From Patescibacteria group bacterium (GTDB lineage: Bacteria > Patescibacteriota > Patescibacteriia > Patescibacteriales > GWC2-42-12), in the NCBI GenBank assembly GCA_041662965.1, contig JBAZRI010000005.1, forward strand, positions 6,166 through 70,165: a stretch of 64,000 bases of DNA. Reading direction: 5' to 3'. The notes beneath the pieces are model-generated. The model worked only from the letters and a program-made list of their open reading frames with translations. It was not told the origin of the DNA and searched no databases. Shown here one piece after another: positions 3,206 to 57,894 of the stretch (positions are counted from its first letter, which is position 1; the number at the start of each line of letters is the position of its first letter). A program made the translations under genes and the position numbers.

Positions 3206-3315
3206 AATCGTATCATTTATGCTCTATAATCGTATCATATTGATACGATTATGGCAAGAGTATGCAGTTTTCTTACAACAAAAATCGCCAAAAAATCAAG
3301 CCTTGCCCTATAAAC

Positions 3316-3348
3316 AAAACGCCCCGTATTCCTACGAGGCGTTTTTAT
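3316..3348 (-). terminator. Intrinsic terminator after the small CDS 3368..3547; identical 33-mer to 982..1014
   Basis: aaaacgccccgtattcctacgaggcgtttttat, 20 nt downstream of the stop at 3368 on the minus strand. Confidence 0.7.
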
Positions 3349-3367
3349 GGCCTAAATTTTTATATAG

Positions 3368-3591: not shown

Positions 3592-6006
3592 TTAGTACAA
3601 GCCGGGGAATTGCTTTTGCACGATGTCTATTGACGGCTGATCCGTCACTACTATTAATAATTGCTTGATAACGATTTTGGCGTTTTCCGTCTCACCGGTT
3701 TTCTGGTAAAGAAGCGCCAAGCTGTAAAGCGCGTTGGCATGGTTCGGATTGGCCTGGACGATGCTTAAAAATAATTGTTCGGCCATGATGATATCGTCGG
3801 TTTTTTTAACCGTGCCGCCGGTTTGGCCGGAAACGCTTAAGTCCTGATTGTTTTCCGTGCCGTTAGTGATATCTTCGGTCGCGGCCTGGGCTATGCCCGG
3901 GTTGGTGGCGACTCCGCGGTTGAAATAAAGCCGGCCGAGCTCAAAGCGGTAATCAACGTTATCTTTGGTTAAAATAACCGCCTTTTTCAGCTGGTCAATA
4001 GCCTCATCCGTTTTATTCAGTTGTTCATAAGCGATAGCTTTACCGTAGTTAGCCGCGCCGAAATCAGCTTTTTTCCCTAAGGCCAGATCGTATTTTTTAA
4101 TGGCCTCGTTGATATAATACTCTTTCTGAGTTTTATCCGTTTCCGCGTTGGCCCGCGCCATATTGATTAAAGCCATCCTTAAGTAAGGCGTCGGGCTGTC
4201 CGGCGATAATTCTATGGCTTTATTATATAGATTTTCCGCCCATTCCAAAGCGCCCTGGACATAAAAAGAGGCGTTTTCGTAAATTAAGGCCATGGCTTCG
4301 TTATTGGCAGTGCTGTTCGGCGATAAAGCTAAAGCTTTTTTACCCGTATCTATGGCTTGAGACAAGCTGTTCTCTATAACCGCTTGGTCGCGGCCGCCGG
4401 AGGCTTCCTGGTTGGCTAAAGCCATATAATTATTGGCCAAATTCAAATAGTAAATATCCTGGTAAGGCGCTAAAATAATGGCTTTATTTATTTTTTCTAT
4501 TTTTTGGTTGACATCGGCGGTCTTTAAAGATTGCATGACATAAATATCCGCCAGATACATTTTTACGCCCATGGTGAATAAAATCACCACGGCCGCGCTT
4601 AAGGTTAAGAAAATAGCCGATAAAGCCAAGGCGTATTTAGGCGAGGCGCGGAATGACAGATTAAGAGTTTTGAATTTTTCCGGATAATTGACTATGCCCA
4701 TGGCCACGGCTAAAACCGCGATCAGCCCGGAGATTAAAACCAGCGAATTATTCATGGAGAACAATAAGCTGAAAATAATGACAATAATAAAACTTGAGAA
4801 TAAGGCTAAAAGAATTGACTGCGTGTCGTTCTTTTGCACTTTAATCAAAGTTAAAAAACAAATTGACAAAGCAATCAGGGAAATAATAATTATGGCTAAA
4901 ACGCCTAAACCGCCGATCGTGGCCGCCATTTCAAACAAATAGCCGGAGGCGTTATTGAATTTAGCGTCCCATAAAGGCGAGGCGTTAAAATCAGCGCTTT
5001 TATATTTGTCAAAACTGTAGTAGAAAGTTGACGGTCCGGAGCCGAATAACAGATTATTTTTCAAGCTGGCTTTGGCAATATTGAAAGAAGCTCCGCGCGA
5101 CAGGCTCACTTCCACCGGCAGGCTTAAGCTCATGATATTAAAATTGCCTAAAACCAAAAGAATAATCAAAAGCAAAAAGCTGGTAATCGGAATAACTATG
5201 TTTGAGCTCGTGATTTTAATAATTTTTGACAAGAGAAACATTAAAACGATAACTATGCCGACGATAGCCGCCGGCCAGAAAGTAAAGCCGTTAAGCAAAG
5301 TTAAAACGAAGAGCGATATTAGGATTACTATGCCTAAGGCCGTTTTAATGGCAATTATTAAAGCTTTATTGGTTAAGCCGGCGTGAATTTCTTTAACTTG
5401 CGCCATGCCGATTACTAACAGCGGCAAAGCCATTATTAAATACATGGTTAAGCCGGAAAGCGAGCCTAAAGAATTAAAGCTGATGGCTTTAGTAAAAGCG
5501 AACGGCAGAACATATTTTCCTAAAAGCTGCAAGAGCGAAAAAATTGCGACTATTGAAGTTGAGCCGATTATGCCCCAAAATAATAATTTAATTTTTTTCT
5601 GGTCAATGTTATTTATGATCAAATAATAAAATAAAATAAAAACTATAACCGCGGCCAGGCTTTTAGACTGGTTGCCGTAAGTGCCTAATAAGCTGTCCTT
5701 TTGGCTGATTGATAAAATCGTGGAAGTTATAAAAATGGCTAAAAAGCCGACGATCGGCCAATCAAGCGGCGTTCTTTTAATGTTTAATTCGCCGATAATC
5801 ACGGCTTTAGTCACCCAGGCCACGGCGCCTAAGAGCACCAAGAAGTAGAATAAAGTCATTTTTTCAAAACCCATGTTTTGCGCCACCAGGCCGGTAAAAA
5901 ACAGCGGGCAGAGAAAAAATACCATAAAAATCGCGCCGATGATAACGAAATCCAAACCCTTGGTGGTGGTTATTTGGTGTTTGGAAATAATCTTTTTTTC
6001 TTCCAT
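3592..6006 (-). CDS. Polytopic membrane protein, O-antigen ligase/polymerase-like, with C-terminal TPR repeats
   Basis: 804 aa. About 12 hydrophobic segments in the N-terminal 500 aa. The C-terminal 300 aa has repeated TPR-like A..Y/A..A patterns (NLANNYMALA, YGKAIAYEQL, ALYSLALLYQKTG). Confidence 0.55.
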   Translation of the reverse strand: MEEKKIISKHQITTTKGLDFVIIGAIFMVFFLCPLFFTGLVAQNMGFEKMTLFYFLVLLGAVAWVTKAVIIGELNIKRTPLDWPIVGFLAIFITSTILSISQKDSLLGTYGNQSKSLAAVIVFILFYYLIINNIDQKKIKLLFWGIIGSTSIVAIFSLLQLLGKYVLPFAFTKAISFNSLGSLSGLTMYLIMALPLLVIGMAQVKEIHAGLTNKALIIAIKTALGIVILISLFVLTLLNGFTFWPAAIVGIVIVLMFLLSKIIKITSSNIVIPITSFLLLIILLVLGNFNIMSLSLPVEVSLSRGASFNIAKASLKNNLLFGSGPSTFYYSFDKYKSADFNASPLWDAKFNNASGYLFEMAATIGGLGVLAIIIISLIALSICFLTLIKVQKNDTQSILLALFSSFIIVIIFSLLFSMNNSLVLISGLIAVLAVAMGIVNYPEKFKTLNLSFRASPKYALALSAIFLTLSAAVVILFTMGVKMYLADIYVMQSLKTADVNQKIEKINKAIILAPYQDIYYLNLANNYMALANQEASGGRDQAVIENSLSQAIDTGKKALALSPNSTANNEAMALIYENASFYVQGALEWAENLYNKAIELSPDSPTPYLRMALINMARANAETDKTQKEYYINEAIKKYDLALGKKADFGAANYGKAIAYEQLNKTDEAIDQLKKAVILTKDNVDYRFELGRLYFNRGVATNPGIAQAATEDITNGTENNQDLSVSGQTGGTVKKTDDIIMAEQLFLSIVQANPNHANALYSLALLYQKTGETENAKIVIKQLLIVVTDQPSIDIVQKQFPGLY

Positions 6007-9578: not shown

Positions 9579-12350
9579 TTATTTTTCCTCAACGATTATG
9601 CCGATTATTTTATCCTGATTTAAATCTTCGGTGATTAACCAGCCGTCCGCGCCGCCGCCTAAATCAACCGGATATTTCCAGATTGGCGCGAAGCCGCCGC
9701 CTAATTTTAATTCGCTGGTTATGGTGGATGAATTCATGCCCGGCTGTTTTTGCACTAACAGCGAATATGAATATAAATTTTTCTGTTCCGGATTTAAAAC
9801 CGCGCCGGCCTTGGTGATAAGCTGATCCGCGAAATTATCTCCGGCCGGCTCCGGCTTAGCGGTTAATTTAAAAGGCAGTTTATATTTTATATTTATTTCA
9901 ACGGTTTCCCCCGGGTCAAGCTGGGACCAGTTGGCGAAGACGGTTTTATTGAATTCATTATAAATTTTCGTGCCGGTGGCTTCGTCCGTTCGCGCCTGGC
10001 TTTCGGCGGCGAAAACTTCGGGATCATTTTCCAGGCCGGCCATTTCTTTATCAAAAAATATTTTATCCACCGGCTTAAAGCCGCTAACTTCCAATAATTC
10101 CGAGCCGAGCGGCACGTAAACTCTTAGCCAATTAACGTTTCTCACTCCGGAAAAAGGCTCGCGCTTAATCGCTTCATGAACGCGCCTAATAGTTAAATTA
10201 TTAATAATTGACCCGTCCGGCTGAATTTCGCTTTGCTGGATAATTTCCTGCTTGATTTTACGGTCGCTTTTTCCGCCGGCGATGTTAGTATTGATAACAT
10301 TTAAATAATCGCCGGCCGTATCTTTAATCCGGCCGCTCCAGCCCAAGTCATCGGCTTTAGCCTGTAAAGCTTCATCCGTAAAATAAAATAAAATATTTTT
10401 GCCGGCGAGCGACTCTTCAATCGCCTTAAATAACGGCCCTAAATTATCCTTAGTCAGCCGCTTAGGCAATTCTTCAATAATTTTATTCATTAAATCACCG
10501 ATGATTTTTTTCGGCTCTCTGGTTACGTCCGGTTTTTGCTCGGCCAGTTTTTGCGTTTCCATAAAGAAATTATCCGCGCCGATAGTTAAGCCGTATTTTT
10601 CTTGCAAATCCACCGGGCCGATTATGGCTAACAATTTTTCCATCACGGTTGGCGTAAAGCTAATAACGCCGTCAACGGTTGAACCGTCGGAATTTTCATA
10701 AAACCAAGCGAGCTTTTCCGCGCTGGTCGGCCAATCCGGCCACCAATTCGCGTCCCAAAAATGCCAATCGGCCCTAACCAGACTTAAAGGCTCCGGCGCT
10801 TTTATTTTTTTTAAAAAACCGGCATCAGTATCGTAGCTGCCGCCGCCCGGAACTTCAATATTTTTTATCTCGCCTTTGGAAAAATCTATTAAAGCAAAAC
10901 TGCCGATAAAGCCGCCCGAAGCGCGCAGTTCCGAGTTATTTTGAAAGACTAATAGATAGCGCTTAGCCGCGCTGGCGCCTAAAAAATTTCCGAGGCTATC
11001 GGCTAAACTGATAAATTCTTTTAAGCCGCGGCTAAGCTGGCCGGCTTTTTGTTTTAATAAAATAAATTCTGTTTGGTAATTTTCCGGTATAACCTCGCTG
11101 TTTATCTGGTCTAAGGTTTTATTTAATTCGCTTAAATCGGTTATGGCGTTATTTCCGTAAAAACTTAAATTCTTTAAAATGTTATTAACGTTATCGGCCC
11201 GGTAGCTAAACAGGCTCTCCATAGCCAAGCTTAAATTTTTTCCCGCGGCCGCGCTTAGCTCGCCGGCGCGCAAAATATTTTTGCCGGCGGCGGCCAGGCG
11301 CATATTTTTATCAGGCAAAACCGAAGCTAAAGCGAAAAGCAAACCGTTGATTTCTTTTAGCTCGTTTTGCGCGCTTAAAAAATTATCGCCGGCGCTTTTA
11401 AAGCCTTGGCCGGCTTGGTTAAAATTAAAATTCGCGGCCGATTGCCCGGCGGAAATTAAATTGCCAATGGCGCTCTCGCTGGCGCCTAAAACCTTGCCGC
11501 GAACCACGTTGATAACTTTATAATAGGTAAAAGCTTTAACCGGTAAAATTATGATAAATAATATTCCGGCGAAAATTAAAACCGGCTTTAAGTAGCCAAC
11601 TAACCGCCTGTCATTGCGAGGAGCGATAGCGACGAAGCAATCTCTTTCTTCGCCAACAGATTTCTTTTCCGCCGCCGCGAGCGACCGCAGGGAGCGAAGC
11701 AATCTCGCGAAGATTGAAACAGCCGCTAGCTGCTTAGCCTGAAGGTCTTGAGGTATATTTTTAATAACTTTATTTACTGCCGGGTGAAATTTAATAAATA
11801 ACAGATAACCCGCTTTTTTAATCGGCTTAATTATGGCTAAAAGCAAAAAGTAAGCCAGCCTTAAAATAAAGACGATTGTCCAGCCGGCCGCGTAGCAAAT
11901 TTTATAAAGCAGCCAATAAACTTTTTTTAGAATAAAATACAGCGCCTTGCCTAAAACGATAAGCGCCAGCTGATTAGATAAAACAACCAAGTAACTGTCA
12001 TTGCGAGCGACCGCAGGGAGCGCGGCAATCTTATTCTTTCTCTTTTTGTCATTGCGAGCTGGCTTTTCCTTTGTCATTCCCGCGAAGGCGGGAATCCAGA
12101 AATTACGGCTGCGAACCATTAAGGCTATAATATTCTTTTTGGCATTTTCACTCCCCGCCTTTAGTATTCCCTTGTAATCCACTTCCGCCAATTTTTCCAG
12201 CTTTTCTTCAAGACGTCCGACGTCTCCAAGACGTCGGACGTCTTTTGCTTTGGTTTCTTCTTTAGGCAGATTCTGCTTTAAATCAATAACAAAACGGGAC
12301 GATTTCACATCCGGGTTAACTTTTAAATTATGGGGATTATTTAAAGCCAT
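9579..12350 (-). CDS. DUF4012 domain protein (paralog 1) with repeat-derived N-terminal extension
   Basis: LLVFQNNSELRASGGFIGSFALIDFSKGEI and WHFWDANWWPDWP parallel the second paralog at 30561..32555. The N-terminal ~250 aa carries in-frame repeat modules. Confidence 0.8.
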   Translation of the reverse strand: MALNNPHNLKVNPDVKSSRFVIDLKQNLPKEETKAKDVRRLGDVGRLEEKLEKLAEVDYKGILKAGSENAKKNIIALMVRSRNFWIPAFAGMTKEKPARNDKKRKNKIAALPAVARNDSYLVVLSNQLALIVLGKALYFILKKVYWLLYKICYAAGWTIVFILRLAYFLLLAIIKPIKKAGYLLFIKFHPAVNKVIKNIPQDLQAKQLAAVSIFARLLRSLRSLAAAEKKSVGEERDCFVAIAPRNDRRLVGYLKPVLIFAGILFIIILPVKAFTYYKVINVVRGKVLGASESAIGNLISAGQSAANFNFNQAGQGFKSAGDNFLSAQNELKEINGLLFALASVLPDKNMRLAAAGKNILRAGELSAAAGKNLSLAMESLFSYRADNVNNILKNLSFYGNNAITDLSELNKTLDQINSEVIPENYQTEFILLKQKAGQLSRGLKEFISLADSLGNFLGASAAKRYLLVFQNNSELRASGGFIGSFALIDFSKGEIKNIEVPGGGSYDTDAGFLKKIKAPEPLSLVRADWHFWDANWWPDWPTSAEKLAWFYENSDGSTVDGVISFTPTVMEKLLAIIGPVDLQEKYGLTIGADNFFMETQKLAEQKPDVTREPKKIIGDLMNKIIEELPKRLTKDNLGPLFKAIEESLAGKNILFYFTDEALQAKADDLGWSGRIKDTAGDYLNVINTNIAGGKSDRKIKQEIIQQSEIQPDGSIINNLTIRRVHEAIKREPFSGVRNVNWLRVYVPLGSELLEVSGFKPVDKIFFDKEMAGLENDPEVFAAESQARTDEATGTKIYNEFNKTVFANWSQLDPGETVEINIKYKLPFKLTAKPEPAGDNFADQLITKAGAVLNPEQKNLYSYSLLVQKQPGMNSSTITSELKLGGGFAPIWKYPVDLGGGADGWLITEDLNQDKIIGIIVEEK
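11610..11709. repeat. Family-1 modules inside the DUF4012 CDS
   Basis: gtcattgcgaggagcgatagcgacgaagcaatctc and gcgagcgaccgcagggagcgaagcaatctcgcg, read in frame as ...CFVAIAPRND... and ...LRSLRSLAAA... Confidence 0.9.
11997..12099. repeat. Family-1 modules inside the DUF4012 CDS
   Basis: gtcattgcgagcgaccgcagggagcgcggcaatct, gtcattgcgagc, gtcattcccgcgaaggcgggaatccag, read in frame as ...PAFAGMTKEKPARNDKK...AALPAVARND... Confidence 0.9.
12211..12243. repeat. Tandem 15-nt palindromes agacgtcSgacgtct (each with two GACGTC cores) inside the CDS
   Basis: agacgtccgacgtct (12211..12225) and agacgtcggacgtct (12229..12243). A third copy lies at 39251..39265. Confidence 0.9.
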
Positions 12351-23832: not shown

Positions 23833-24501
23833 CTAATTGACCAGCATGGCGATAAACAAATCTTTTAGAATTTTCAGGCCGCCGGAAAAACTTTGCCCGA
23901 AATTATGGTAAATGACTTTAATGGGTATTTCTTTAACTTTAAAATTATTCTTTTTTACTTCAAACATTATCTCCGAGCAATGCGCCATCCGATCCTGCTT
24001 CCAGCTGATTCTACGCGCCGCCTCGGCCGACATCGCTCTGAAACCGCTTTGCGGGTCAGTCAAATTTACATTAAAAAATACTTTATTAACCGCTTTAGCC
24101 AAAGGCATAATAAAATATTTTTTGAAAAAAGGCATGCCTAAGCTGTGCTCGGCGTTAAGAAAGCGCGAACCGAAAACAACTTGCGCTCTGCCGTCTTTAA
24201 TCGGCGCCGCGATGCGTTCTATATCTTGGCTTAAAAACTGGCCATCGGCGTCAAAATGGACGATTATATCGGCGCCATTGTTTAAGCAATACTTAGTTCC
24301 GGTTCTTAAGGCCGCGCCTTGCCCGCGGTTTATTATATGCTTAAGCAAAACCGCGCCGGCCCGCGCGGCTAAATCAGCCGTCCGATCGCTTGAGCCGTCG
24401 TCAACAATCACTAGCCTATCAACCAGCGGACGTACCTGGTTAATTATTGTTATTATGTTTTTTTCTTCATTGAACGCCGGAATGACACAAAAAATCTTCA
24501 T
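23833..24501 (-). CDS. Glycosyltransferase family 2 (polyprenol-phosphate sugar transferase-like)
   Basis: VIPAFNEEKNI, IVDDGSSDRT, FDADGQ. Confidence 0.85.
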   Translation of the reverse strand: MKIFCVIPAFNEEKNIITIINQVRPLVDRLVIVDDGSSDRTADLAARAGAVLLKHIINRGQGAALRTGTKYCLNNGADIIVHFDADGQFLSQDIERIAAPIKDGRAQVVFGSRFLNAEHSLGMPFFKKYFIMPLAKAVNKVFFNVNLTDPQSGFRAMSAEAARRISWKQDRMAHCSEIMFEVKKNNFKVKEIPIKVIYHNFGQSFSGGLKILKDLFIAMLVN

Positions 24502-24525
24502 AAATAATTATATTAGCACCTCATG

Positions 24526-24624
24526 TTTGGGCTAAATTTATAAAATTTTCGTGCGAGGACTGTTTGAGCCCAAGTAATCTTGGGTGAGTTCCGAGAGGAG
24601 AAAATTTTATAAATTTAGCCCAAA
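24526..24624. repeat. Rod-like hairpin element, family 2, copy 1
   Basis: Perfect 25-bp arms tttgggctaaatttataaaattttc / gaaaattttataaatttagcccaaa. Cores gtgcgaggactgtttgag and gagttccgagaggag. Apical hairpin cccaag-taat-cttggg. Confidence 0.9.
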
Positions 24625-24643
24625 CTATATGTCGTAAATTTTT

Positions 24644-25657
24644 TTATATTACAGTTTTTAAACCTTTGCTGGCCCGTAAATCATCAATGGTTTTTTTCAG
24701 GCCGTTTTCCAAAGTAACAATCGGCATCCAGCCCAGCTCTTCCCGCGCCCTGGTTATGTCAGGCAAGCATAATTCGCTGATAAATAAATTTTTCTCCGCG
24801 TAGGTTATTTTGGACTTTGAATCTAAAATTTTTATAATCATTTCACAAATTTTTTCCAATTTCATATCAACGTCCGAACCGATATTAACCGGGCCTAAAA
24901 TATGGCTATCCATTAATTTTACGCAAGCATCAACGCAATCGCTGATATAGCAAAGCGAACTGGAAAAATTTTTATCGCCCGGAATAACCAGATCTGAATT
25001 TTCCAAAGCGCTGTTTATGAAATCCGGAATTAGATTGCCTTCATTTAATTTCATTCTAGGCCCGTAAACGCGGAATAAGCGGATTACCTTTGAATCAATA
25101 TTATGAACTTGGCGATAATTTTCCACCATGGTTTCAGAGAATCTTTTGCCTTCGTCATACGAACTTCTTTGAGAAAGAAAGTCAACTTTGCCGATTTCGC
25201 TTTCTCTGATTCTCTTCTGGCTGTCCAGCCTTGGACCGTAAACCACGGAGGAAGAAAAATGCATAATTTTCGCCTTATAGCGGACCGCTAAATCCAGCAT
25301 ATTCTTTAGGCCGTAAGACGAAGCTAAAATAGTCTGAATTTTATTTTTATCAAAATTCTTAGGCGAAGTCGGGCAAGCTAAATTATAAATTTCCTGGACG
25401 CCTTGAAATTCTATTTTAAATTTTTGCAACTCCGATAATTTTTCCAAATCAATCGGTTCGGCAATATCATGCTTTATAAATTCAAAATTAGGGTCGGAAA
25501 GCAGATGGTCAATATTCCTTTCGTCGCCGGTGGAAAAATTATCAAGGCAAATTACTTTGTTATTTTCTAAAAGGCGGTCGCATAAATGCGAGCCGATAAA
25601 GCCGGCGCCGCCGGCCACTAAAACGTTTTTTTTGTCAAAAATTGCTCTTTTGCTCAT
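24644..25657 (-). CDS. NAD-dependent epimerase/dehydratase, UDP-glucuronate decarboxylase (UXS)-like
   Basis: VLVAGGAGFIGSHL; YDEGKR catalytic region. Confidence 0.8.
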   Translation of the reverse strand: MSKRAIFDKKNVLVAGGAGFIGSHLCDRLLENNKVICLDNFSTGDERNIDHLLSDPNFEFIKHDIAEPIDLEKLSELQKFKIEFQGVQEIYNLACPTSPKNFDKNKIQTILASSYGLKNMLDLAVRYKAKIMHFSSSVVYGPRLDSQKRIRESEIGKVDFLSQRSSYDEGKRFSETMVENYRQVHNIDSKVIRLFRVYGPRMKLNEGNLIPDFINSALENSDLVIPGDKNFSSSLCYISDCVDACVKLMDSHILGPVNIGSDVDMKLEKICEMIIKILDSKSKITYAEKNLFISELCLPDITRAREELGWMPIVTLENGLKKTIDDLRASKGLKTVI

Positions 25658-25690: not shown

Positions 25691-27919
25691 TTACTTATTG
25701 ATTTTTATACTGCCTACGCTTACTCCGCCGCCGAAACTTTCTTCATAAGCATAAAACGAGCCAACGATTCTGCCATCAGCTTTAAAAACGCGGACATGAG
25801 GCGCTCCGCCCGGACCGGCGGCGGTTATAATTTCATCCAAGCCGTCATTATCTACGTCGGCTTTAGCTAAATTCACGCCGCCGCGGAAATTACTGTTAAA
25901 GGCGAAAAAATGCGATAATAAATTTCCTTTGCCGTCAAAAAATTTAATATGCGGCCCGCCGTTTTTTTCCGGCGCGGTAATAATATCCGCTCGATTGCCC
26001 CTTGAGCCGCTTCTAACGCTGGCGATCGTGACTTTAACGCCGCCGCGGAAAGTTTTAGGGTAGGCCAAAAATTGCCCTTGTAAAATGCCGCCGGCTTTAA
26101 AGATTCTAACTTCGGGAATTTTTCCGGCCGCCAAACCGGTCACTATTTCATCTTCGCCGTCGCCGTCTATGTCGCCGGTAGCGATATTAAGCCCGCCTTT
26201 AAACTTATTATCATAAGCGTAAAATGAGCCTAGCACCTGGCCGCGGCCGTTAAAAATTTTTATTTCCGAATTTCCGCCCGTAGCTTGCGCGGCGATAATT
26301 TCATCACTGCCGTCATTGTTAACGTCGGCAGCGGCAATGTTAACGCCGCCGCGGAAATTACTGTTAAAAGCAAAGAATTGGCCGATCGGCTCTCCTTTCA
26401 GGTTAAAAATCCTGATATGCGGCCCGCCGCCAAGCCCGGCCGCGGTAATAATTTCCTGTTGGCCGTCATGATTTATGTCCCCGGAAGCAAAATTAACGCC
26501 GCCTTTAAAATTATTGGCGTAGGCGTAAAACTCGCTATCTTTTTTGCCGTCTTGATCGGTAATTTTTATAAGGCTGGCCAGGCCGTTTTTCGGCCCAATC
26601 AGCAATTTTTCAATTTTATTATTTAACAGGCTCTGCGCGTAATTAACCGCGGCCGCGATATTCAGCCTGCCTTTGCCAAGCTGGCCTAAATATTTCGGAT
26701 TTAACCGACTGATATTATCCGTATTATCCAATAGCGTTTTTATAATCTGGTCTCGGTTTAAAGCCGGGTTAGCGCTGGCTATTAAAGCCAACGCGCCGCT
26801 TACCATGGGCACGGCGACCGAGGTACCGGACCAATAACCGTCATAATATTTATTAAACGGCTGGCCATTTAAGTAATTATCAGGCGAATAAACCACTGTG
26901 CTGAAAACACTGACCCCGGGCGCGGCAATATCAATGCATTTATTGCCAAAACTGGAAAAAGCCGCTTTCTGGTCTAAAGTATCGGTTGCGGCTACGCCGA
27001 TTACTCGGTTCTCGCCGTTAGCGCCATCAAGGCAAACCGGATACATGGGAGTTTGATCCAAATAATAGCCATCTCCCTGGCCGACTTCATTGCCTCCGGC
27101 AGCCACCACGATTATTCCGGCGTTATAAGCGCGTTTTATGGCGTCATCAAGGCCTTGGCTGTAGCCAAAGCCGACAAAACTTAGATTTATAATATTAGCG
27201 CCGTTGGCGACCGCGTAATCAACCGCCTTGATAACTTTAGAAGCGCTGCCTTCGCCTTTGTCATCCAAAACTTTAAGCGGCATAATTTTCGCTTTCCAGG
27301 TTATGCCGGCTATGCCGGCGGCGTTATTGCCGGAAGCCGCGGCTATACCGGCGATAATCGTGCCGTGCAATATTCCGTCTTCGCTAAAATCCGGCTTAAA
27401 CTTTGGCGACGGATCAGGCACATTATTGACAAAATCCCAGCCGTTAACATCATCAATAAAACCGTTTCTGTCATCATCAATATTGTTATCGGCGATTTCT
27501 TTTTTATTAAGCCAGATATTGCTTCTTAAATCGGGATGGCTGATTTGCACTCCTGAATCTAAAATGGCGATGACAATCTCGGGGCTTTCCCTTTTATTGT
27601 CCCAAGTTTCAATGGCTTTAACTTTTTGCAGATACCATTGATTATTGAAATAAGTATCAGACGGTATTATGGCGGCTTGATAAAGATAATTCGGCTCGGC
27701 ATATTCCACTTCCGGCAAACCGCTATAATAATTTAAAAAATTATTAAAATCGCCTGCTTGAGCAATTTTAATGGCTATCGGTTCGGTTGAAGCTTTAAAT
27801 TTCACCAATATTTCATCAGCGACAAAATTATTTTGGATAGCGCCAAAAGCATTATGGCCGGTGAATATAATCAGCCCAAATAAAAATATAATAAAAAAAG
27901 ATGTTATATTCTTTTTCAT
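25691..27919 (-). CDS. Secreted S8 (subtilisin-family) serine peptidase with C-terminal FG-GAP/VCBS-like repeats
   Basis: Catalytic triad contexts AILDSGV, HGTIIAG and SGTSVAVP. Repeated DxNxDGxxEII...GGPHIRIF units. Start moved to MKKNITSFF (signal peptide-like). Confidence 0.85.
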   Translation of the reverse strand: MKKNITSFFIIFLFGLIIFTGHNAFGAIQNNFVADEILVKFKASTEPIAIKIAQAGDFNNFLNYYSGLPEVEYAEPNYLYQAAIIPSDTYFNNQWYLQKVKAIETWDNKRESPEIVIAILDSGVQISHPDLRSNIWLNKKEIADNNIDDDRNGFIDDVNGWDFVNNVPDPSPKFKPDFSEDGILHGTIIAGIAAASGNNAAGIAGITWKAKIMPLKVLDDKGEGSASKVIKAVDYAVANGANIINLSFVGFGYSQGLDDAIKRAYNAGIIVVAAGGNEVGQGDGYYLDQTPMYPVCLDGANGENRVIGVAATDTLDQKAAFSSFGNKCIDIAAPGVSVFSTVVYSPDNYLNGQPFNKYYDGYWSGTSVAVPMVSGALALIASANPALNRDQIIKTLLDNTDNISRLNPKYLGQLGKGRLNIAAAVNYAQSLLNNKIEKLLIGPKNGLASLIKITDQDGKKDSEFYAYANNFKGGVNFASGDINHDGQQEIITAAGLGGGPHIRIFNLKGEPIGQFFAFNSNFRGGVNIAAADVNNDGSDEIIAAQATGGNSEIKIFNGRGQVLGSFYAYDNKFKGGLNIATGDIDGDGEDEIVTGLAAGKIPEVRIFKAGGILQGQFLAYPKTFRGGVKVTIASVRSGSRGNRADIITAPEKNGGPHIKFFDGKGNLLSHFFAFNSNFRGGVNLAKADVDNDGLDEIITAAGPGGAPHVRVFKADGRIVGSFYAYEESFGGGVSVGSIKINK

Positions 27920-27960
27920 AACATCTTTATTATAACATAAGTTGCCGGTATTTTTCAAAT

Positions 27961-29229
27961 CTAAATTTTTTCCAAAAGCGCCAATGTTTCCCGGGCGCAT
28001 TTAGCCAGGCTAAAGTCTTTTACTCTGATAAAACCGTTAGAGATTAATTGATCGGCCAATTCTCTGTCCAATAATATTTTCGCCATTTTTTGCGCCATAT
28101 CATCCTTATCCCCCGGGTTGAAAAGCAAAGCTGAATCTTTAACAACTTCCCTTATGGAAGCGATATTGGAAGCCGCGACCGGCGTGCCGCAAACCATGGC
28201 CTGGAGCAAAGGTATGCCAAACCCTTCATAGAGCGAAGGAAAAACAAATAAAGCGGCGCCGTTATAAATATAAGGCATATCGGCTTCCGGCACCCAGCCG
28301 GTCATAATTACGTTATCTTCAAGATCATATTCGTTTATGACATATTTAATTTCATCATAGCCGGAGTCGGCTCTGCCTACTAAAACCAACTTAGGCTTTA
28401 TCTGGCTGAATTTTTGCCTCATGATGGCATAAGCGCCGACCAGATTAGCGGTATTTTTCTTTTTTTCCAAGCGGCCGGCATAAAAAATATAAGGGGCTTT
28501 AATGTCATATTTATTTAAAACTTGTTTTATTTTTTCCGCGTCCTGAATCGGGCGATAAAGCGCGCCGTTAAAGCCGTTATAAACCACTTTAATTTTTTCC
28601 GCGTCAGCTTGATAAAATTCCACCATTTCTTTTTTAGTAAATTCAGACACCGCGATAATTGTTTTGGCGTGCTTGAGCGCGAATTTCGTTGACCAGCTAT
28701 GATAATCAATAACATTTGAATGAAACTTGCCTAAAGTAAACAACCTGACTAAAAAATTGAAAACTCCGGAAATTAAGCCGCTGGCCGGGCCGATTTTATC
28801 CGAACTGTAAAGTTTGGCCTGGCGCTCAAAACCTATGTCATGGATAGTAACGATTGATTTTTTCGGATGAATAACCGGCAGAGTGTGAGCCGGTATGAAA
28901 AGTACGTCTGCCCGATGCATTAACATTTCATAAGACAAGCGAATTTGCGTCCAAAAAAAAGTAAAAGGCCAGTTTAAAATTTTAACGCGGAAATTACAAT
29001 TTGGACTTTTAATTTCTTGCCAGCCGTAGCCGTCTATTTTACCCGGCTTAGCCGAATAATTTTCATCGGTTAAATCAGCTAAGCCGCCGGTTAAAGGCTT
29101 ATCACTATATAAAATATATTGATTTTTTGAATCAATTTTAGCCAGCTCTCTTATCAAATAATAAGAATACCACTCCGTACCGCCTTTAAATTTTCTATTC
29201 GCCCTTGAGGCGTCAATGCCGATAAGCAT
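27961..29229 (-). CDS. Glycosyltransferase family 4
   Basis: EGFGIPLLQAMVCGTPVAASN. Confidence 0.85.
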   Translation of the reverse strand: MLIGIDASRANRKFKGGTEWYSYYLIRELAKIDSKNQYILYSDKPLTGGLADLTDENYSAKPGKIDGYGWQEIKSPNCNFRVKILNWPFTFFWTQIRLSYEMLMHRADVLFIPAHTLPVIHPKKSIVTIHDIGFERQAKLYSSDKIGPASGLISGVFNFLVRLFTLGKFHSNVIDYHSWSTKFALKHAKTIIAVSEFTKKEMVEFYQADAEKIKVVYNGFNGALYRPIQDAEKIKQVLNKYDIKAPYIFYAGRLEKKKNTANLVGAYAIMRQKFSQIKPKLVLVGRADSGYDEIKYVINEYDLEDNVIMTGWVPEADMPYIYNGAALFVFPSLYEGFGIPLLQAMVCGTPVAASNIASIREVVKDSALLFNPGDKDDMAQKMAKILLDRELADQLISNGFIRVKDFSLAKCARETLALLEKI

Positions 29230-29245
29230 AAAAATTGTATATAAT

Positions 29246-29360
29246 ATTGGGCTAAATTTAGAAAATTTTCGTGCGAGGACTGCCTGCCTGCCGGCAGGCA
29301 GGTTTGAGGAGCTTTAAGCGACGAGTTCCGCAGTAGAAAATTTACTAAATTTAGCCCAAT
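29246..29360. repeat. Rod-like hairpin element, family 2, copy 2 (carries an extra inserted GC hairpin)
   Basis: attgggctaaatttagaaaattttc...gaaaatttactaaatttagcccaat. Core gtgcgaggactg followed by inserted cctgcctgccggcaggcagg, then tttgag...gagttccgcagtag. Confidence 0.9.
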
Positions 29361-29380
29361 TAATATGTAGTATAATAATT

Positions 29381-30388
29381 TTATTTCGTCGCAAAAATAC
29401 TCCGTTTATACGAGTCCAAATTCTCAAGCGCTATCCCCGTGCCTTTGGCCACGCAAAGAAGCGCGTCGTCCGCCACGTAAGCCGGCACGTCGGTGGTGCG
29501 TGAAAGCAACTGGTCAATGTTTCTTAGGAGCGACGAGCCGCCCGAGAGTACCATGCCTTTATCCATAATGTCGGCGGCTAATTCCGGCGGAGTATCCTGC
29601 AAAACTCTTTTAGCGGCTTGGATTATAGCTTCCAGCTCATTTTGAATCGCTTCGGTAACATCATCGGAATTAACCATAATATTTCTCGGTAAGCCGGTAA
29701 TCATATCGCGGCCGCGTATTTCCATGGTTAATTTGTCTTCCAAATATAAAGCGCTGCCGATTTTAATTTTAGTCTCCTCGGCCGTTCTTTCGCCGATGGC
29801 TAAATTATATTTTCGCCTGATAAATTCCTGAATGGCCGCGTCAAATTTATTGCCGCCGATGCGCACCGAAGTTGAAGTTACTACTCCGCCTAGTGAAATT
29901 ACCGCCATTTCCGCCGTGCCGCCGCCAATATCAATAATCATATGCCCGGAAGCCGAACCGATGGGAATATCGGCGCCGATAGCCGCGGCAATCGGCTCTT
30001 TTATAATATAAGCCGCTCTGGCTCCGGCCGCGATAGTCGCGTCAATAACCGCCCGGCGTTCGGTTGAAGTAATGCCGGCCGGAACCGCTACCATAACTTC
30101 CGGCCGGAACAATCTTATGCCGCCTAGAGCTTTATTGATAAAATATCGGAGCATGGCTTCGGTAGTATGATAATCGGCAATCACGCCGTCTTTCAGCGGC
30201 TTAATGGCGACAATAGTGTCCGGCGTTCGGCCTAACATATCTTTAGCTTCATTGCCCACGGCTAAAATCTTTTTATCAATCAAAGAAATCGCCACCACCG
30301 AAGGTTCGTTAATAATAATGCCTCTTTTAGGCAGATGCACTAAAGTATAAGTTGTACCTAAATCTATGCCGATCCGCTTGATAAACAT
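29381..30388 (-). CDS. mreB: Rod shape-determining protein MreB
   Basis: IGIDLGTTYTLV, actin-fold motifs throughout. Start moved to MFIKR because the upstream ATG lies inside a repeat module. Confidence 0.9.
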   Translation of the reverse strand: MFIKRIGIDLGTTYTLVHLPKRGIIINEPSVVAISLIDKKILAVGNEAKDMLGRTPDTIVAIKPLKDGVIADYHTTEAMLRYFINKALGGIRLFRPEVMVAVPAGITSTERRAVIDATIAAGARAAYIIKEPIAAAIGADIPIGSASGHMIIDIGGGTAEMAVISLGGVVTSTSVRIGGNKFDAAIQEFIRRKYNLAIGERTAEETKIKIGSALYLEDKLTMEIRGRDMITGLPRNIMVNSDDVTEAIQNELEAIIQAAKRVLQDTPPELAADIMDKGMVLSGGSSLLRNIDQLLSRTTDVPAYVADDALLCVAKGTGIALENLDSYKRSIFATK

Positions 30389-30398
30389 AAGATATAAT

Positions 30399-30551
30399 GT
30401 CATTGCGAGAAGCCTGTAATCAGGCGACGAAGCAATCTCTTCCTTATTGTCATTCCCGCGAAAGCGGGAATCCAGGTTTAAACGCTATAAACAAGTTTCT
30501 GGATTGCGGGTCAAGCCCGCAATGACGAAGTAAATTTCGCTCGCAATGACA
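30399..30551. repeat. Repeat cluster: family-1 unit, composite B-spacer-C element, terminal aatgac
   Basis: gtcattgcgag-aagcctgtaatcagg-cgacgaagcaatctc; gtcattcccgcgaaagcgggaatccag (30449..30475), a 23-nt spacer, then ctggattgcgggtcaagcccgcaatgac (30499..30526). Confidence 0.9.
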
Positions 30552-30560
30552 AATAAGAAT

Positions 30561-34033: not shown

Positions 34034-35287
34034 TTATTCATGCCTTAAAGCTTCGACCGGCTGCAATTTGCTGGCTCTTAGCGCCGGGTATAAGCCGAAA
34101 ATTAAGCCAACGCTTGCCGAAACCGCTAAAGCCAGCGTAATTGACAATAAAGAAATGGACAAATCCCAGCTATAGCCCAAAAAATTGGCAATAACCGAAA
34201 TTAAAATTGCTATTAAACTGCCGATTATAACGCCGATGGTTCCGCCGCTTAAAGTAATCGTGGCCGCTTCCATTAAAAACTGAATCATAATGCTTTTATT
34301 GTTGGCGCCGACGGCTTTTCTTAAGCCGATTTCCCTGGTTCTCTCGGTAACGCTTACCAGCATAATATTCATGATGCCGATGCCGCCGACCAATAAAGAC
34401 ATGGCGGCGATAGCCACTAGAAAAAATTTCAAGGCGTCGGTAATCGTGGTTATCATTTCCATGGCTTGGGCCGAACTTCGGACCGTAAAATCGTCACTAG
34501 CCCCGCTTTGATCGGAAATATCATGCCTCTCGCGCAAAGTGGCTTTAACGTCATGCATGGCCCTGTCCGTATCTTCTTCGCTGTCAATTTTAAGCCTCAT
34601 CATGCTGACATGATTTACTCCGGCGATTAATTTTTGCATGGTTTTAAGCGGAAGGAAAACCTGATCATCGTTATTTTGGAAAGCCACCGTGCCTTTCTCT
34701 TTCATGACGCCGATGACTTCAAACGTATGTTTTTTTATTTTCACTCTTTGGCCGATCGGATCGGATTCGCCGAATAATTCTTTTTTTACCGCGCTGCCTA
34801 AAACCGCGACTTTAGCTAAATTTGTTTCTTCCTCTTTGGTAAAAAATCTGCCTTGGTCAATTTCACCGCCCTCAACATTCATATAGCCGACCGTCGCGCC
34901 GCTTAAATTGGTATCATATGAATTCGCGCCCCAGCTGACATTGCCGACGCTCTTATAGTAAGCCACTAAATCAACTATGTTAGGCACATTTTTTTTGTCG
35001 TTTAAGGCTAAACCGTCTTCATAAGTTAGCGTGGTAATTACTATGCCCATAACAGTGGCCGGCGGGCCGTCTTCTTCCGAAGCGCCGGGCAAAATTCCGA
35101 TTATATCGGTGCCTAAAGTTTTTACTTGATTGATAATCAGGCTCTGCGCTCCGGCGCCCACGGCCATAATAATAATAACGGCCGACACGCCGATGATTAT
35201 CCCCAGCATTGTTAAAAAGCTTCTGCCCTTATTGGCCAGAAGCGCTCTGGTTGAAGTCTTAATGGATTGTTTATAAAATTCCAGCAT
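34034..35287 (-). CDS. ABC transporter permease, MacB/FtsX family
   Basis: Same architecture as its neighbour (ERTREIGLRKAVGA). Confidence 0.85.
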   Translation of the reverse strand: MLEFYKQSIKTSTRALLANKGRSFLTMLGIIIGVSAVIIIMAVGAGAQSLIINQVKTLGTDIIGILPGASEEDGPPATVMGIVITTLTYEDGLALNDKKNVPNIVDLVAYYKSVGNVSWGANSYDTNLSGATVGYMNVEGGEIDQGRFFTKEEETNLAKVAVLGSAVKKELFGESDPIGQRVKIKKHTFEVIGVMKEKGTVAFQNNDDQVFLPLKTMQKLIAGVNHVSMMRLKIDSEEDTDRAMHDVKATLRERHDISDQSGASDDFTVRSSAQAMEMITTITDALKFFLVAIAAMSLLVGGIGIMNIMLVSVTERTREIGLRKAVGANNKSIMIQFLMEAATITLSGGTIGVIIGSLIAILISVIANFLGYSWDLSISLLSITLALAVSASVGLIFGLYPALRASKLQPVEALRHE

Positions 35288-35302: not shown

Positions 35303-35403
35303 ATTGGCTTTAGCTTTTGTAAAATTTTCGTGCGAGGACTGTTTGAGGCCGAGTAATCTCGGCCGAGTTCCGCAGTAGAAAATTTACAAAAACTAAAGCC
35401 AAT
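35303..35403. repeat. Rod-like hairpin element, family 2, copy 3
   Basis: Different but complementary arms attggctttagcttttgtaaaatttt / aaaatttacaaaaactaaagccaat. Same cores. Apical hairpin gccgag-taat-ctcggc. Confidence 0.9.
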
Positions 35404-35424
35404 CTACTGCTGTTTAACGTTTAA

Positions 35425-36138
35425 CTATTTCAGCATCTCTCCATCCTTAGCTATCCTTCGGTGCGTGACTTCATAGTCATCCACTATTAAGCCGTCTCTG
35501 ACTTTAATAATTCTTTTGGCATGCTCGGAAGTATAAGTTTCATGGGTTACTAAAACTATGGTATTGCCCAGATCGTTTAATTTTTGCAAAATTTCCATTA
35601 TTTGCACGCCTGATTTTGAATCAAGGTTGCCGGTCGGCTCATCGGCGAAAATAACCGCCGGGTCGTTAACTAAAGCGCGGGCGATAGCTACCCGCTGTTT
35701 TTCGCCGCCGGAAATCTGATTGGTATAATAATTTAAGCGATGCGCCAGTCCGACGCTTTCTAAAATCAGTTTGGCCCGGGCTTCGGGCGCTTCTTTACGC
35801 TTAGCATAAGTCAAAGGCAGCATAACATTTTCTAAAACCGTGGTGCGCGGCAGAAGGTTAAAAGCTTGAAAAACAAAGCCGATTTTGCGGTTGCGCAGTC
35901 CGGCCAATTCATCGTCGTCCAATTTAGTCACGTCTTTGCCTTCAAGAAAATATTTGCCGCCCGACGGCCGATCTAAGAGCCCTAAAATATGCATTAAAGT
36001 GGATTTGCCCGAGCCTGACGGGCCCATGATAGCGATAAAATCGCCTTGAGCGATATTAAAACTAAGGCCGTTTAGAACCGGCGTGACAATTTCGCCGTTG
36101 ACGAAATTTTTAGTTAAATTGTACGCCTGAATAAGCAT
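35425..36138 (-). CDS. ABC transporter ATP-binding protein (MacB/LolD-like)
   Basis: [33 protein letters not shown]. Start moved to MLIQAYNL because the track N-terminus translates the family-4 repeat. Confidence 0.9.
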
Positions 36139-36147
36139 AAAAGAAAT

Positions 36148-36235
36148 AAAAAAACCCCAATAACCAAATCCCAATAACCAAACAATTCTAATTAAATAAA
36201 AACTGGTCATTGGTCATTGGAGCTTGGAATTTTTA
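36148..36235. repeat. AT-rich long hairpin element (family 4) inside the exporter operon
   Basis: ccccaataaccaaatcccaataacc ... ctggtcattggtcattggagcttggaattttta. Confidence 0.85.
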
Positions 36236-38403: not shown

Positions 38404-38534
38404 ACAATTAAAATTTAAAGCAATTAGCATTACCTGGAGTAATTATACTAATTTTTAAATAATTTTACAAGCCGTCTTTAATGAAAACGCCCCGGTAAAA
38501 AACCGAGGTATTTTCACTAAATGAAAATAGTTTT

Positions 38535-57708: not shown

Positions 57709-57849
57709 ATTGGGCTAAATTTATGAAATTTTCGTGAGATTACTGCAGTTAGGCTTGGAAAAATTGTTTTTATCGCGCATACGAAATTGTAGCGACCGCA
57801 GGGAGCCCAAATTTCGTCTAAGCAAAAAAAACAATTTTTCCAAGCCTAA
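57709..57849. repeat. Nested repeats: degenerate family-2 left half, then a full family-3 element with a family-1 module at its apex
   Basis: attgggctaaatttatgaaattttcgtgagattactgcag, then ttaggcttggaaaaattgttttt...gcgcatacgaaattgta-gcgaccgcagggagc-ccaaatttcgtctaagc...aaaaacaatttttccaagcctaa. Confidence 0.9.
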
Positions 57850-57894
57850 CGTATAACTACAATATTATTTCAATTTTCCTACCGCTTATTTTTG

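Follow-up and report, generated by a model that had tools for sequence, protein, structure and literature searches.

Several classes of palindromic repeat are known from the spaces between bacterial genes. The MITEs, or miniature inverted-repeat transposable elements, have conserved terminal inverted repeats derived from an insertion sequence (IS), together with a target-site duplication, which is TA for the Correia elements (CREE/NEMIS). The ERIC elements, on which Hulton et al. wrote in 1991, are said to be most conserved in their central part. REP elements measure 20–40 nt and carry a conserved 5′ GTAG or GGAG, and a REPIN is an inverted doublet with conserved arms. In the attC sites of integrons the base of the stem is conserved (RYYYAAC...GTTRRRY) and the centre is variable, the sites forming a direct-repeat array beside intI. 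The pdif modules of Acinetobacter plasmids are genes flanked by inverted XerC/D sites, the Xer sites being 28 bp long. Patescibacteria genomes are small, gene-dense and thought to be poor in mobile elements. We have analysed a stretch of 64,000 nucleotides from a Patescibacteria group bacterium (positions 6,166 to 70,165 of JBAZRI010000005.1, a metagenome contig of 73 kb; hereafter the window), in which a rod-like hairpin element of roughly 100 nt occurs in three full copies and one truncated copy. The evidence favours mobile DNA of an undescribed, structure-dependent family over a regulatory RNA of these operons.

From end to end, a full copy consists of an arm, GTGCGAGGACTG, TTTGAG, the apical hairpin, CGAGTTCCGCAGTA and a second arm. 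All coordinates are given for the plus strand, which carries the core as written (the core strand), and the flanking genes are on the minus strand. Copy 1 (24525..24625) lies between the genes for UXS (24644-25657) and GT2 (23833-24501). Its arms (24525-24550 and 24600-24625) form 26 bp of perfect pairing; inside them come GTGCGAGGACTG-TTTGAG as left core (24551-24568), CCCAAG-TAAT-CTTGGG as apical hairpin (24569-24584) and a right core mutated to TGAGTTCCGAGAGGA (24585-24599). Copy 2 (29246..29360), between the genes for MreB (29381-30403) and GT4 (27961-29229), has arms of 25 bp with one mismatch (29246-29270 and 29336-29360), the left core at 29271-29282, TTTGAG at 29303-29308 and the right core CGAGTTCCGCAGTA at 29322-29335; a 20-nt palindrome, CCTGCCTGCCGGCAGGCAGG, is placed between GGACTG and TTTGAG (29283..29302) and turns the rod into a three-way junction. 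Copy 3 (35303..35403) separates an ABC ATPase (35425-36210) from a MacB-type permease (34034-35287). Its arms, of 27 and 26 nt with one C:A and one bulge of 1 nt, span 35303-35329 and 35378-35403; between them lie the left core with TTTGAG (35330-35347), an apical hairpin, GCCGAG-TAAT-CTCGGC (35348-35363), and the right core (35364-35377). The earlier note had placed three full copies here, between consecutive minus-strand genes and with no T-run; we refined the boundaries to those given above, recovered the same junctions (GT2/UXS, mreB/GT4, ABC ATPase/permease) and saw no terminator-like site at the elements. The GT2 is identical to a protein that NCBI assigns to a Patescibacteria MAG (metagenome-assembled genome). 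The terminal pairing that the note described, with arms of 23–25 bp, was also found; the arms measure 24–27 bp by our boundaries.

Copies 1, 2 and 3 scored 47.3, 36.4 and 70.8 bits with a covariance model of the core, and with filters off only these three full copies were matched in the 64 kb. On the plus strand, exact matches to the left core TTTTCGTGCGAGGACTG lie at 24546, 29266 and 35325, and one with three mismatches lies at 57729 (chance expectation 0.13). As RNA or as DNA, and on either strand, the three full copies fold far better than shuffled sequences (z between −7.6 and −9.8); the gene-sense strand of the window copies folds at −39 to −53 kcal/mol. The copies are spaced by 4.7–22 kb among housekeeping genes.

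Copy 4 (57709..57745, plus strand) comprises a left arm and a decayed left core (TTTTCGTGAGATTACTG), and its sequence ends after ...CGTGAGATTACTG. An unrelated rod hairpin of 102 nt is nested in it (57749..57850, plus strand; arms TTAGGCTTGGAAAAATTGTTTTT, centre ...GTAGCGACCGCAGGGAGC...); this rod folds as DNA at −30.5 kcal/mol (z −8.7) and is not a member of the family. The covariance model of the core found no right half of copy 4 in the 64-kb window. Because a different rod stands at 57749-57850 and no right half follows it, copy 4 was truncated by the nested insertion of this rod. What had been called a degenerate half is indeed a partial copy, but one cut short by an insertion.

The palindrome of copy 2, CCTGCCTGCCGGCAGGCAGG, is a portable sub-module that recurs in different repeat elements. 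It is also present in the L141 copy at the same position, in L209, and in an unrelated element of the perm1-perm2 spacer of L247/L248 (L numbers designate the comparison loci).

The family extends well beyond the window. When the two-sided pattern GCGAGGACTG..TTGAG..CGAGTTCCGCAG was scanned over metagenomes, where we estimate ~0.1 matches by chance, at least 119 loci were found, and the covariance model of the core gave 135 matches. The consensus core is GCGAGGACTG-YTTGAG-[hairpin]-CGAGTTCCGCAG. Family-wide counts in this work (alignment, folds, loops, pairs, orientation) cover the matches listed, which are a lower bound on the family. Some 33 of them are of a Patescibacteria type, with AT-rich arms of 24–27 bp ending inside in AAATTTTC/GAAAATTT, and ~100 are on GC-rich contigs, where the identical core sits at the apex of far longer rods with arms of up to ~70 bp. 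The Patescibacteria-type copies occupy many unrelated junctions, including the ribosomal-protein/secY operon, and adjoin housekeeping genes (glycosyltransferases, RuvA, ribosomal proteins, SecY); the junction downstream of secY holds copies of two different arm classes in L013 and L030. Copy 2, L141 and L029 (second copy) are three-way-junction variants. Scanning species-representative genomes with a 15-mer was unspecific (at least 120 matches, mostly chance), and the true copies it contained belong to Candidatus Falkowbacteria, Parcubacteria and three more Patescibacteria-like MAGs, with several copies per genome. A replicon of Variovorax paradoxus has a variant core that keeps CTGTTTGAG..CGAGTT with a different closing helix. 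The viral contigs scanned held no copy; a phage origin was rejected, the lone 17-mer match (L002) being a chance match in unrelated sequence.

At L029, two convergent copies (3225-3365 and 3670-3767) surround a gene of the YbaB/EbfC family encoding 91 aa. In the first of them the left core has diverged (TTTTTGAACGAGGACTG) and a further hairpin follows GAGTTCC; this is the clearest Patescibacteria-type copy in sense orientation.

No Rfam family matched the window, the two copies examined closely or six GC-rich loci, in line with the earlier note, which recognised no named RNA family in it. None of the self-cleaving models in Rfam (hammerhead, twister, twister-sister, pistol, hatchet, hairpin, HDV-like) came near its gathering threshold, and the sole responses were from generic miRNA-hairpin models, far under their thresholds. 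A literature search on the core strings and on palindromic repeats of Patescibacteria returned nothing relevant. Several identities were tried and rejected. A hammerhead-like reading of CUGUUUGAG-[stem]-CGAGUUC fails because the flanking strands pair together, which leaves no third helix, GAGU stands for GAAA, and the ribozyme models of Rfam are silent. As read from the sequence, a kink-turn or bulged-G motif at the junction of arm and core lacks the needed G.A pairs or opposing GAA. A small open reading frame (ORF) in the core was likewise set aside, since there is neither third-position variation nor a start codon.

The stems were proposed to covary, and this was confirmed on an alignment of 29 Patescibacteria-type copies with 41 consensus pairs, using 500 shuffles as a control. 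Pairing was found in 94.6% of the cells as compared to 79.1% in the shuffles, and double-sided changes in 163 cells as compared to 48; none of the 500 shuffles reached the observed values. Compensatory changes affect 22 of the 41 pairs. The signal was lost if the partners were slid by one to three columns. Outer ends vary even inside one genome (GTTTGGGC, ATTGGC, AAAGCTCGC, TTGCTTGCAC, TATTCAGGC), and the only constant parts are the inner AAATTTTC/GAAAATTT and the centre, ~40 bases of which are identical in bacteria as different as Patescibacteria and the GC-rich hosts. The invariance of the core is not merely an artefact of the scan pattern, because 27 of the 135 covariance-model matches lie outside this pattern and keep the core nearly unchanged; its commonest change is CTG(T>C)TTGAG. 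Selection acts on structure in the arms and on sequence in the centre.

Comparison of orthologous junctions, reached on syntenic contigs via close homologues of the ABC ATPase and GT2, shows presence and absence of the element. The spacer between ABC ATPase and permease is 137 nt long in the window, 5 nt (TAA-ATAAT-ATG) in L243-L245, whose ATPase is ~90% identical to that of the window, and 2 nt in L242. The UXS-GT2 spacer is 142 nt in the window versus 12 nt in L250, an empty site with neither a scar nor the flank motif described below. Since the element directly follows the stop codon in spacers that measure 2–12 nt in relatives, it is inserted DNA and not an ancestral part of these operons. 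The junction polymorphism, the many unrelated junctions occupied and the copy cut by a nested insertion bear out the mobile-element half of the earlier note's interpretation. In the two comparisons of filled and empty sites, a TAA/TAG target-site duplication is conceivable, but the right boundary is then inconsistent.

A short motif accompanies the element. ATGTCGT lies 3′ of the copy 1 hairpin on the core strand (24629..24635), with equivalents at 29365-29371 (ATGTAGT) and 35406-35413 (ACTGCTGT), all on the plus strand; on the gene-sense strand it reads ...ACAT.. directly before the hairpin. In the flanks listed, ~21 of 30 copies of the Patescibacteria type were read to have a motif [AC]TG[TC] (ATGTNGT-like) no more than 8 nt from where the hairpin ends. 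In all three full copies of the window the inserted block starts immediately after the stop codon, with a similar gene-sense leader (AAWWATTWAYNACATRTA). The UXS-GT2 junction of L254/L255 has a stub of 41 nt, AATAATTTATAACATGTA-GCTTGGGCTAA-CCCAT..., in which the flank motif is kept together with 11 nt from the start of the arm and which looks like the footprint of a deletion. Because the motif stands beside this stub and is missing at the empty site of L250, it belongs to the element.

The same junctions are filled differently in other relatives. The UXS-GT2 junction of L252 contains an unrelated filler of 143 nt, the MreB-GT4 junction of L243/L244 a different repeat (TGTCAT...ATGAC type), and other unrelated hairpin repeats occupy identical junctions elsewhere. 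Copies at the UXS-GT2 junction are also found in L135 and L220, where the flanking proteins are 82–88% identical, the arms are compensated and the apical hairpins wholly different; judged from these comparisons, the UXS-GT2 and secY-downstream cases may reflect either re-insertion at a hot spot or conversion, or else retention in place. The lineage of L243, L244 and L255 has spacers of 1–10 nt throughout the operon region, and the sister lineages (window, L242, L246, L247) have assorted hairpin repeats of 100–300 nt at the corresponding short junctions. This is a lineage-specific inflation of the genome by palindromic repeats.

We then consider which strand, and which nucleic acid, the structure serves. 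Of 136 whole elements, 127 fold more stably on the core strand, and the arms alone, with the core excluded, favour it too (23 versus 8 for the Patescibacteria type, 72 versus 27 for the GC-rich type). The arms taken alone have 44 G.U pairs on the core strand versus 23 on the other. The core helix GGACT/AGTTC includes a G.T on the core strand in every copy, and in the 29-copy alignment the arm column 20-91 is G.U in 17, A-U in 7 and G-C in 3. The single C:A of copy 3, from which the gene-sense strand had been deduced, is unrepresentative: wobble pairs and energies point to the plus strand, the one that bears the core. Relative to the flanking genes, 26 of 31 Patescibacteria copies have this strand in antisense and the other 5 in sense; GC-rich copies have no orientation bias relative to genes. 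Among 79 distinct apical loops there are 42 triloops, 19 of them C-GNA-G, and none of the 13 tetraloops is of the GNRA or UNCG type. As DNA, GCGNAGC mini-hairpins have an extraordinary stability, which is much lower in RNA, and they are present at single-strand initiation signals (PMC13037366). No convincing promoter was found before the core strand of the window elements, and no terminator after it. A promoter borne by the element was rejected: the upstream TATAAT-like hexamers are ancestral AT-rich spacer, and the promoter scan gave 43, hardly more than the 32 ± 5 of shuffles. The strand preference of the fold together with the DNA-type apical loops leads us to favour a hairpin or cruciform at the DNA level.

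In GC-rich bacteria the core is part of a larger unit, in which another conserved hairpin (HP2: GGGGTCGCCTTTTCTTTGGTTACTTTCTTTGGCGA..CAAAGAAAGT.AC) comes after that of the core (HP1); the rods carry outer GAGYARCGCAGGG loops. The units form divergent inverted pairs, with at least 20 (−,+) pairs and no (+,−) pair among the matches listed, and with arms of ~165–220 nt. The inner distance is either 166–300 nt with no gene, or 0.85–1.6 kb with a single ORF. These ORFs are mutually unrelated (Abi_alpha, a RelA_SpoT-domain protein, an IS110 transposase, several with no Pfam match). The pairs that bracket such a cargo (L160:1100-1840, L196:524-1600 and L185:732-1736; also L163, L165, L133, L207 and L142) are cassette-like modules. 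The genes that adjoin GC-type copies are diverse housekeeping genes. At L130 (9397-11017), a tandem array of non-coding units of 428 nt, each with a ~190-nt rod and the core, lies between two ordinary genes. HP2 alone occurs, unannotated, in Ilyobacter polytropus (Fusobacteriota) and in other cultured bacteria, Proteobacteria included; it was found (GGGGTGCCTTTTCTTTGGTTACTTTCTTTGGGCAAGCAAAGAAAGTAAC and relatives) at six places on pILYOP01 of I. polytropus (L256, 1500-1550). A complete inverted pair with the variant core is present in V. paradoxus CP063167 (L257, 880-1560).

In search of a linked enzyme, Pfam domains were surveyed in 47 ORFs of the window and in the neighbours of GC-type (128) and Patescibacteria-type (129) copies. 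Neither transposases nor integrases were enriched among these ORFs or among the neighbours, which come from fragments of 8–20 kb per genome. The 25 commonest Pfam families of the window ORFs, a fragment and not a whole genome, include no transposase or integrase, and the 25 commonest families of the neighbouring loci, on the same 8–20 kb fragments, no transposase. The IS110 transposase of L185 was rejected as the linked enzyme, because it sits in the middle of an inverted pair as cargo, like the other unrelated cargo.

These properties can be set against the described systems. ERIC (IRU) elements are likewise imperfect palindromes of ~100–130 nt in transcribed intergenic regions, with internal-insertion variants and presence or absence between strains, and in both families the most conserved part is central. 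The likeness is one of architecture only, with no evident relationship in sequence. The present family differs in its host range (Patescibacteria and GC-rich bacteria, plus Proteobacteria for a variant core), in that its arms are far more variable and its core asymmetric, and in that its GC-rich relatives are inverted pairs with cargo. With the Correia MITEs the element shares a small size, the lack of coding sequence, multiple copies in operon junctions, co-transcription, insertion polymorphism and the long terminal pairing that gives RNase III-type duplexes in RNA. As in MITEs generally, it is present or absent at orthologous sites. However, its termini vary (GTTTGGGC, ATTGGC, AAAGCTCGC, TTGCTTGCAC) and its centre is conserved; there is no clear target-site duplication in the junctions compared, and no parent IS was found. 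The plain MITE that the earlier note had considered therefore does not describe it.

REP sequences and REPINs with their RAYT transposases are similar in having a hairpin kept by compensatory change, a presumed single-stranded DNA substrate and no clear target duplication, as well as in being strand-asymmetric and intergenic. Membership fails on the variable arms, the conserved centre and the absence of GTAG at the ends of the Patescibacteria copies; moreover, no RAYT is among the surveyed families, and under the usual assumptions the favoured strand is the leading- and not the lagging-strand template. The flank motif, which is one-sided and reads ACAT on the gene-sense strand, brings to mind the tetranucleotide targeted by IS200/IS605. 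This one-sided ATGT/ACAT motif, the strand asymmetry and the scarless empty site of L250 would suit transposition of the IS200/IS605 type, but the motif travels with the element, no TnpA is among the surveyed families and the predicted strand is unexpected.

An attC site is also recognised as a folded single strand just after a stop codon, with its structure kept while the sequence varies and with a variable apex, and the cargo of the GC-rich relatives (Abi_alpha, RelA_SpoT, unknowns) is cassette-like. In attC, however, the conserved part is the base of the stem, the reverse of what is seen here, and the sites are clustered, whereas the present copies are separated by kilobases and set among housekeeping genes, and the forms in GC-rich bacteria are inverted pairs. 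The ends TTGGGC...GCCCAA have the box order reversed and inconstant, and the conserved part is the centre, which excludes membership. An attC array is excluded as well by the spacing of 4.7–22 kb and by the lack of an integrase among the 25 commonest Pfam families of the window. As for pdif, the resemblance is restricted to the GC-rich relatives, in which single unrelated cargo, including toxin and defence genes, is bracketed by inverted units resembling recombination sites; these units are structured arms of ~220 nt made of the core hairpin and the second hairpin, and are set apart by this description. The best explanation groups the element broadly with the intergenic repeats of bacteria (MITE, REPIN, ERIC-like).

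With moderate confidence, we interpret the element as a non-autonomous, structure-dependent palindromic mobile element, whose recognition unit would be the folded strand with its invariant asymmetric core and which a putative enzyme would move in trans. What is recognised may be either the core strand, folded as single-stranded DNA, or a cruciform. An enzyme that reads structure and core but not the termini could use the asymmetric core as its module for binding or cleavage; likely candidates would be HUH/Y1-type enzymes (IS200/IS605-RAYT-like) or enzymes of the tyrosine-recombinase type acting on hairpin DNA. The arms, also the much longer ones of the GC-rich relatives, need only stay complementary; the stem would supply the hairpin, which would explain the compensatory evolution. 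Co-transcription with the operon is probably a passive consequence. The 26:5 orientation bias may come from strand-specific insertion or from selection against whichever orientation puts the more stable fold, that of the core strand, into the mRNA. The operon mRNA is likely to be affected, and orientation-dependent effects on mRNA are expected of ERIC-type repeats (PMC10969869); here such effects appear incidental, and a selected function in the mRNA is not indicated.

Several observations weigh against this interpretation. The termini are not conserved between copies, the two comparisons of filled and empty sites show no unambiguous target-site duplication, and neither a candidate transposase among the surveyed neighbours and window ORFs nor a parent IS was found. 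Mobility is deduced from comparisons of junctions and not from direct observation of movement. If genes and GC skew are taken as markers of the leading strand, which is an assumption, the favoured strand is the leading-strand template and so not the strand most exposed as single-stranded DNA in replication. The UXS-GT2 copies of the window, L135 and L220 keep an intact core and paired arms, suggesting constraint in place; intact orthologous copies are unlike a purely selfish, decaying insertion, unless hot-spot re-insertion or conversion accounts for them. The copies share descent, so the strand and orientation statistics overstate their independence. Finally, the invariant unpaired nucleotides of the core would also fit a catalytic or protein-binding RNA.

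This last alternative, in which the core strand is transcribed and the invariant core is an RNA motif carried by the repeats (a self-cleaving ribozyme or a site for an RNA-binding protein), is in our opinion unlikely. Hammerheads are carried by retrozymes or satellite repeats, and a catalytic core classically shows unpaired nucleotides that are invariant, surrounded by stems that vary. The unpaired GYTTGA and a bulged A are invariant in AT-rich and GC-rich hosts alike, the G.U is conserved in the GGACU/AGUUC helix and prevails at column 20-91 (17 of 29), the core strand folds better, every unit of the L130 array has the motif, and three-way-junction variants exist (copy 2, L141, the second L029 copy). 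These features have to be balanced with a topology that is a simple hairpin with an asymmetric internal loop and no hammerhead-like junction, and with the absence from Rfam of any family above noise, the known self-cleaving classes included. No promoter precedes the core strand in the window, and in the Patescibacteria this strand runs antisense to operons that are tightly packed; the triloops are of the DNA type, with GNRA and UNCG absent; and the GC-rich copies, as inverted pairs, have one copy on either strand. An element of the gene-sense mRNA, such as an RNase III site or another hairpin for processing, stability or translational coupling, is highly improbable. It would have to be transcribed, lying in co-directional junctions without terminators, its sense strand folds strongly as well (−39 to −53 kcal/mol), and Correia and ERIC elements are known for such effects (PMC10969869). 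However, it is missing from these operons in relatives with spacers of 2–12 nt, the sense strand is the weaker folder and has C.A mismatches where the core strand has conserved wobbles, the junctions are functionally unrelated, and the core is common to GC-rich elements without orientation preference. The structured RNA on the gene-sense strand advanced by the earlier note is, as a selected function, opposed by its absence in relatives, the antisense position in 26 of 31 copies, the lack of a promoter and the DNA-type loops.

It is also improbable, to about the degree of the RNA motif on the core strand, that the hairpin or cruciform with its core is a DNA site useful to the host, kept by selection and bound by a host protein in recombination, ssi-like priming, replication pausing or chromosome organisation. 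The preservation of the core across phyla would suit such a site, as would the UXS-GT2 copies of three genomes (flanks 82–88% identical) with their intact core and compensated arms, the 26:5 bias relative to genes and the resemblance of the mini-hairpin loops to those of single-strand initiation signals (PMC13037366). Against it, close relatives lack the element at the very junctions concerned, and unrelated hairpin repeats are interchangeable there. Copy 4 is destroyed, and the right core of copy 1 is mutated. Furthermore, the apparently orthologous copies have entirely different apical parts, a pattern closer to re-insertion or conversion than to conservation. A bolder version of the mobile-element interpretation, which we regard as possible but doubtful, would make the core (GCGAGGACUG-YUUGAG-[hairpin]-CGAGUUCCGCAG) a cross-phylum module of a new class of hairpin-recognising recombination or transposition, with solo rods in the junctions of Patescibacteria and, in GC-rich bacteria, inverted pairs mobilising single-gene cassettes (abortive-infection and small-alarmone-synthetase toxin genes) distinct from integrons and pdif; alternatively, the core might be a new catalytic RNA or DNA.

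The region holds other repeats. A second rod family is represented at 57749-57850 (arms TTAGGCTTGGAAAAATTGTTTTT, centre ACGAAATTGTAGCGACCGCAGGGAGCCCAAATTTCGT), and CGACCGCAGGGAGC is common to its centre and to small repeats at 11677-11705 and 12003-12031. The window also contains small hairpin repeats of another type, TGTCATTGCGAG...CTCGCAATGACA, at least ten in number, together with related ...GGAATGACA ends; they start at 11609, 11996, 12047, 12072, 15886, 17771, 21976, 30398, 30448 and 40000. They fill the DUF4012-MreB spacer (30404-30560) as well as junctions in L242, L246 and L247, and also occur inside the long ORF 9579-12350, which may be over-called for this reason. Near-identical terminator-like hairpins (AAAACGCCCCG...CGGGGCGTTTTT) follow consecutive genes at 975-1020, 2102-2147 and 3309-3354, with a weaker fourth at 38484-38514. 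DNA repeats with a period of 153 nt (25719-26536) lie inside the ORF 25691-28000, whose 769-aa product has a Peptidase_S8 domain and weak or faint FG-GAP matches; they are probably protein repeats.

Such repeats break assemblies and spawn spurious ORFs, and a model of the repeat improves annotation. For the organisms themselves, several families of hairpin repeats have taken spacers from 1–12 nt in one lineage to 100–300 nt in its sisters, and this inflation reaches even ribosomal-protein and cell-envelope operons. The element also inverts the usual logic of MITEs, its centre being invariant across Patescibacteria and GC-rich hosts and its ends free, and this combination implies an enzyme or a chemistry that reads the folded strand. 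If the partner were found, the core could become a new structure-specific recombination tool, and the system would offer a handle on the movement of DNA in uncultured organisms and on the spread of defence and toxin genes by cargo-bearing inverted pairs.

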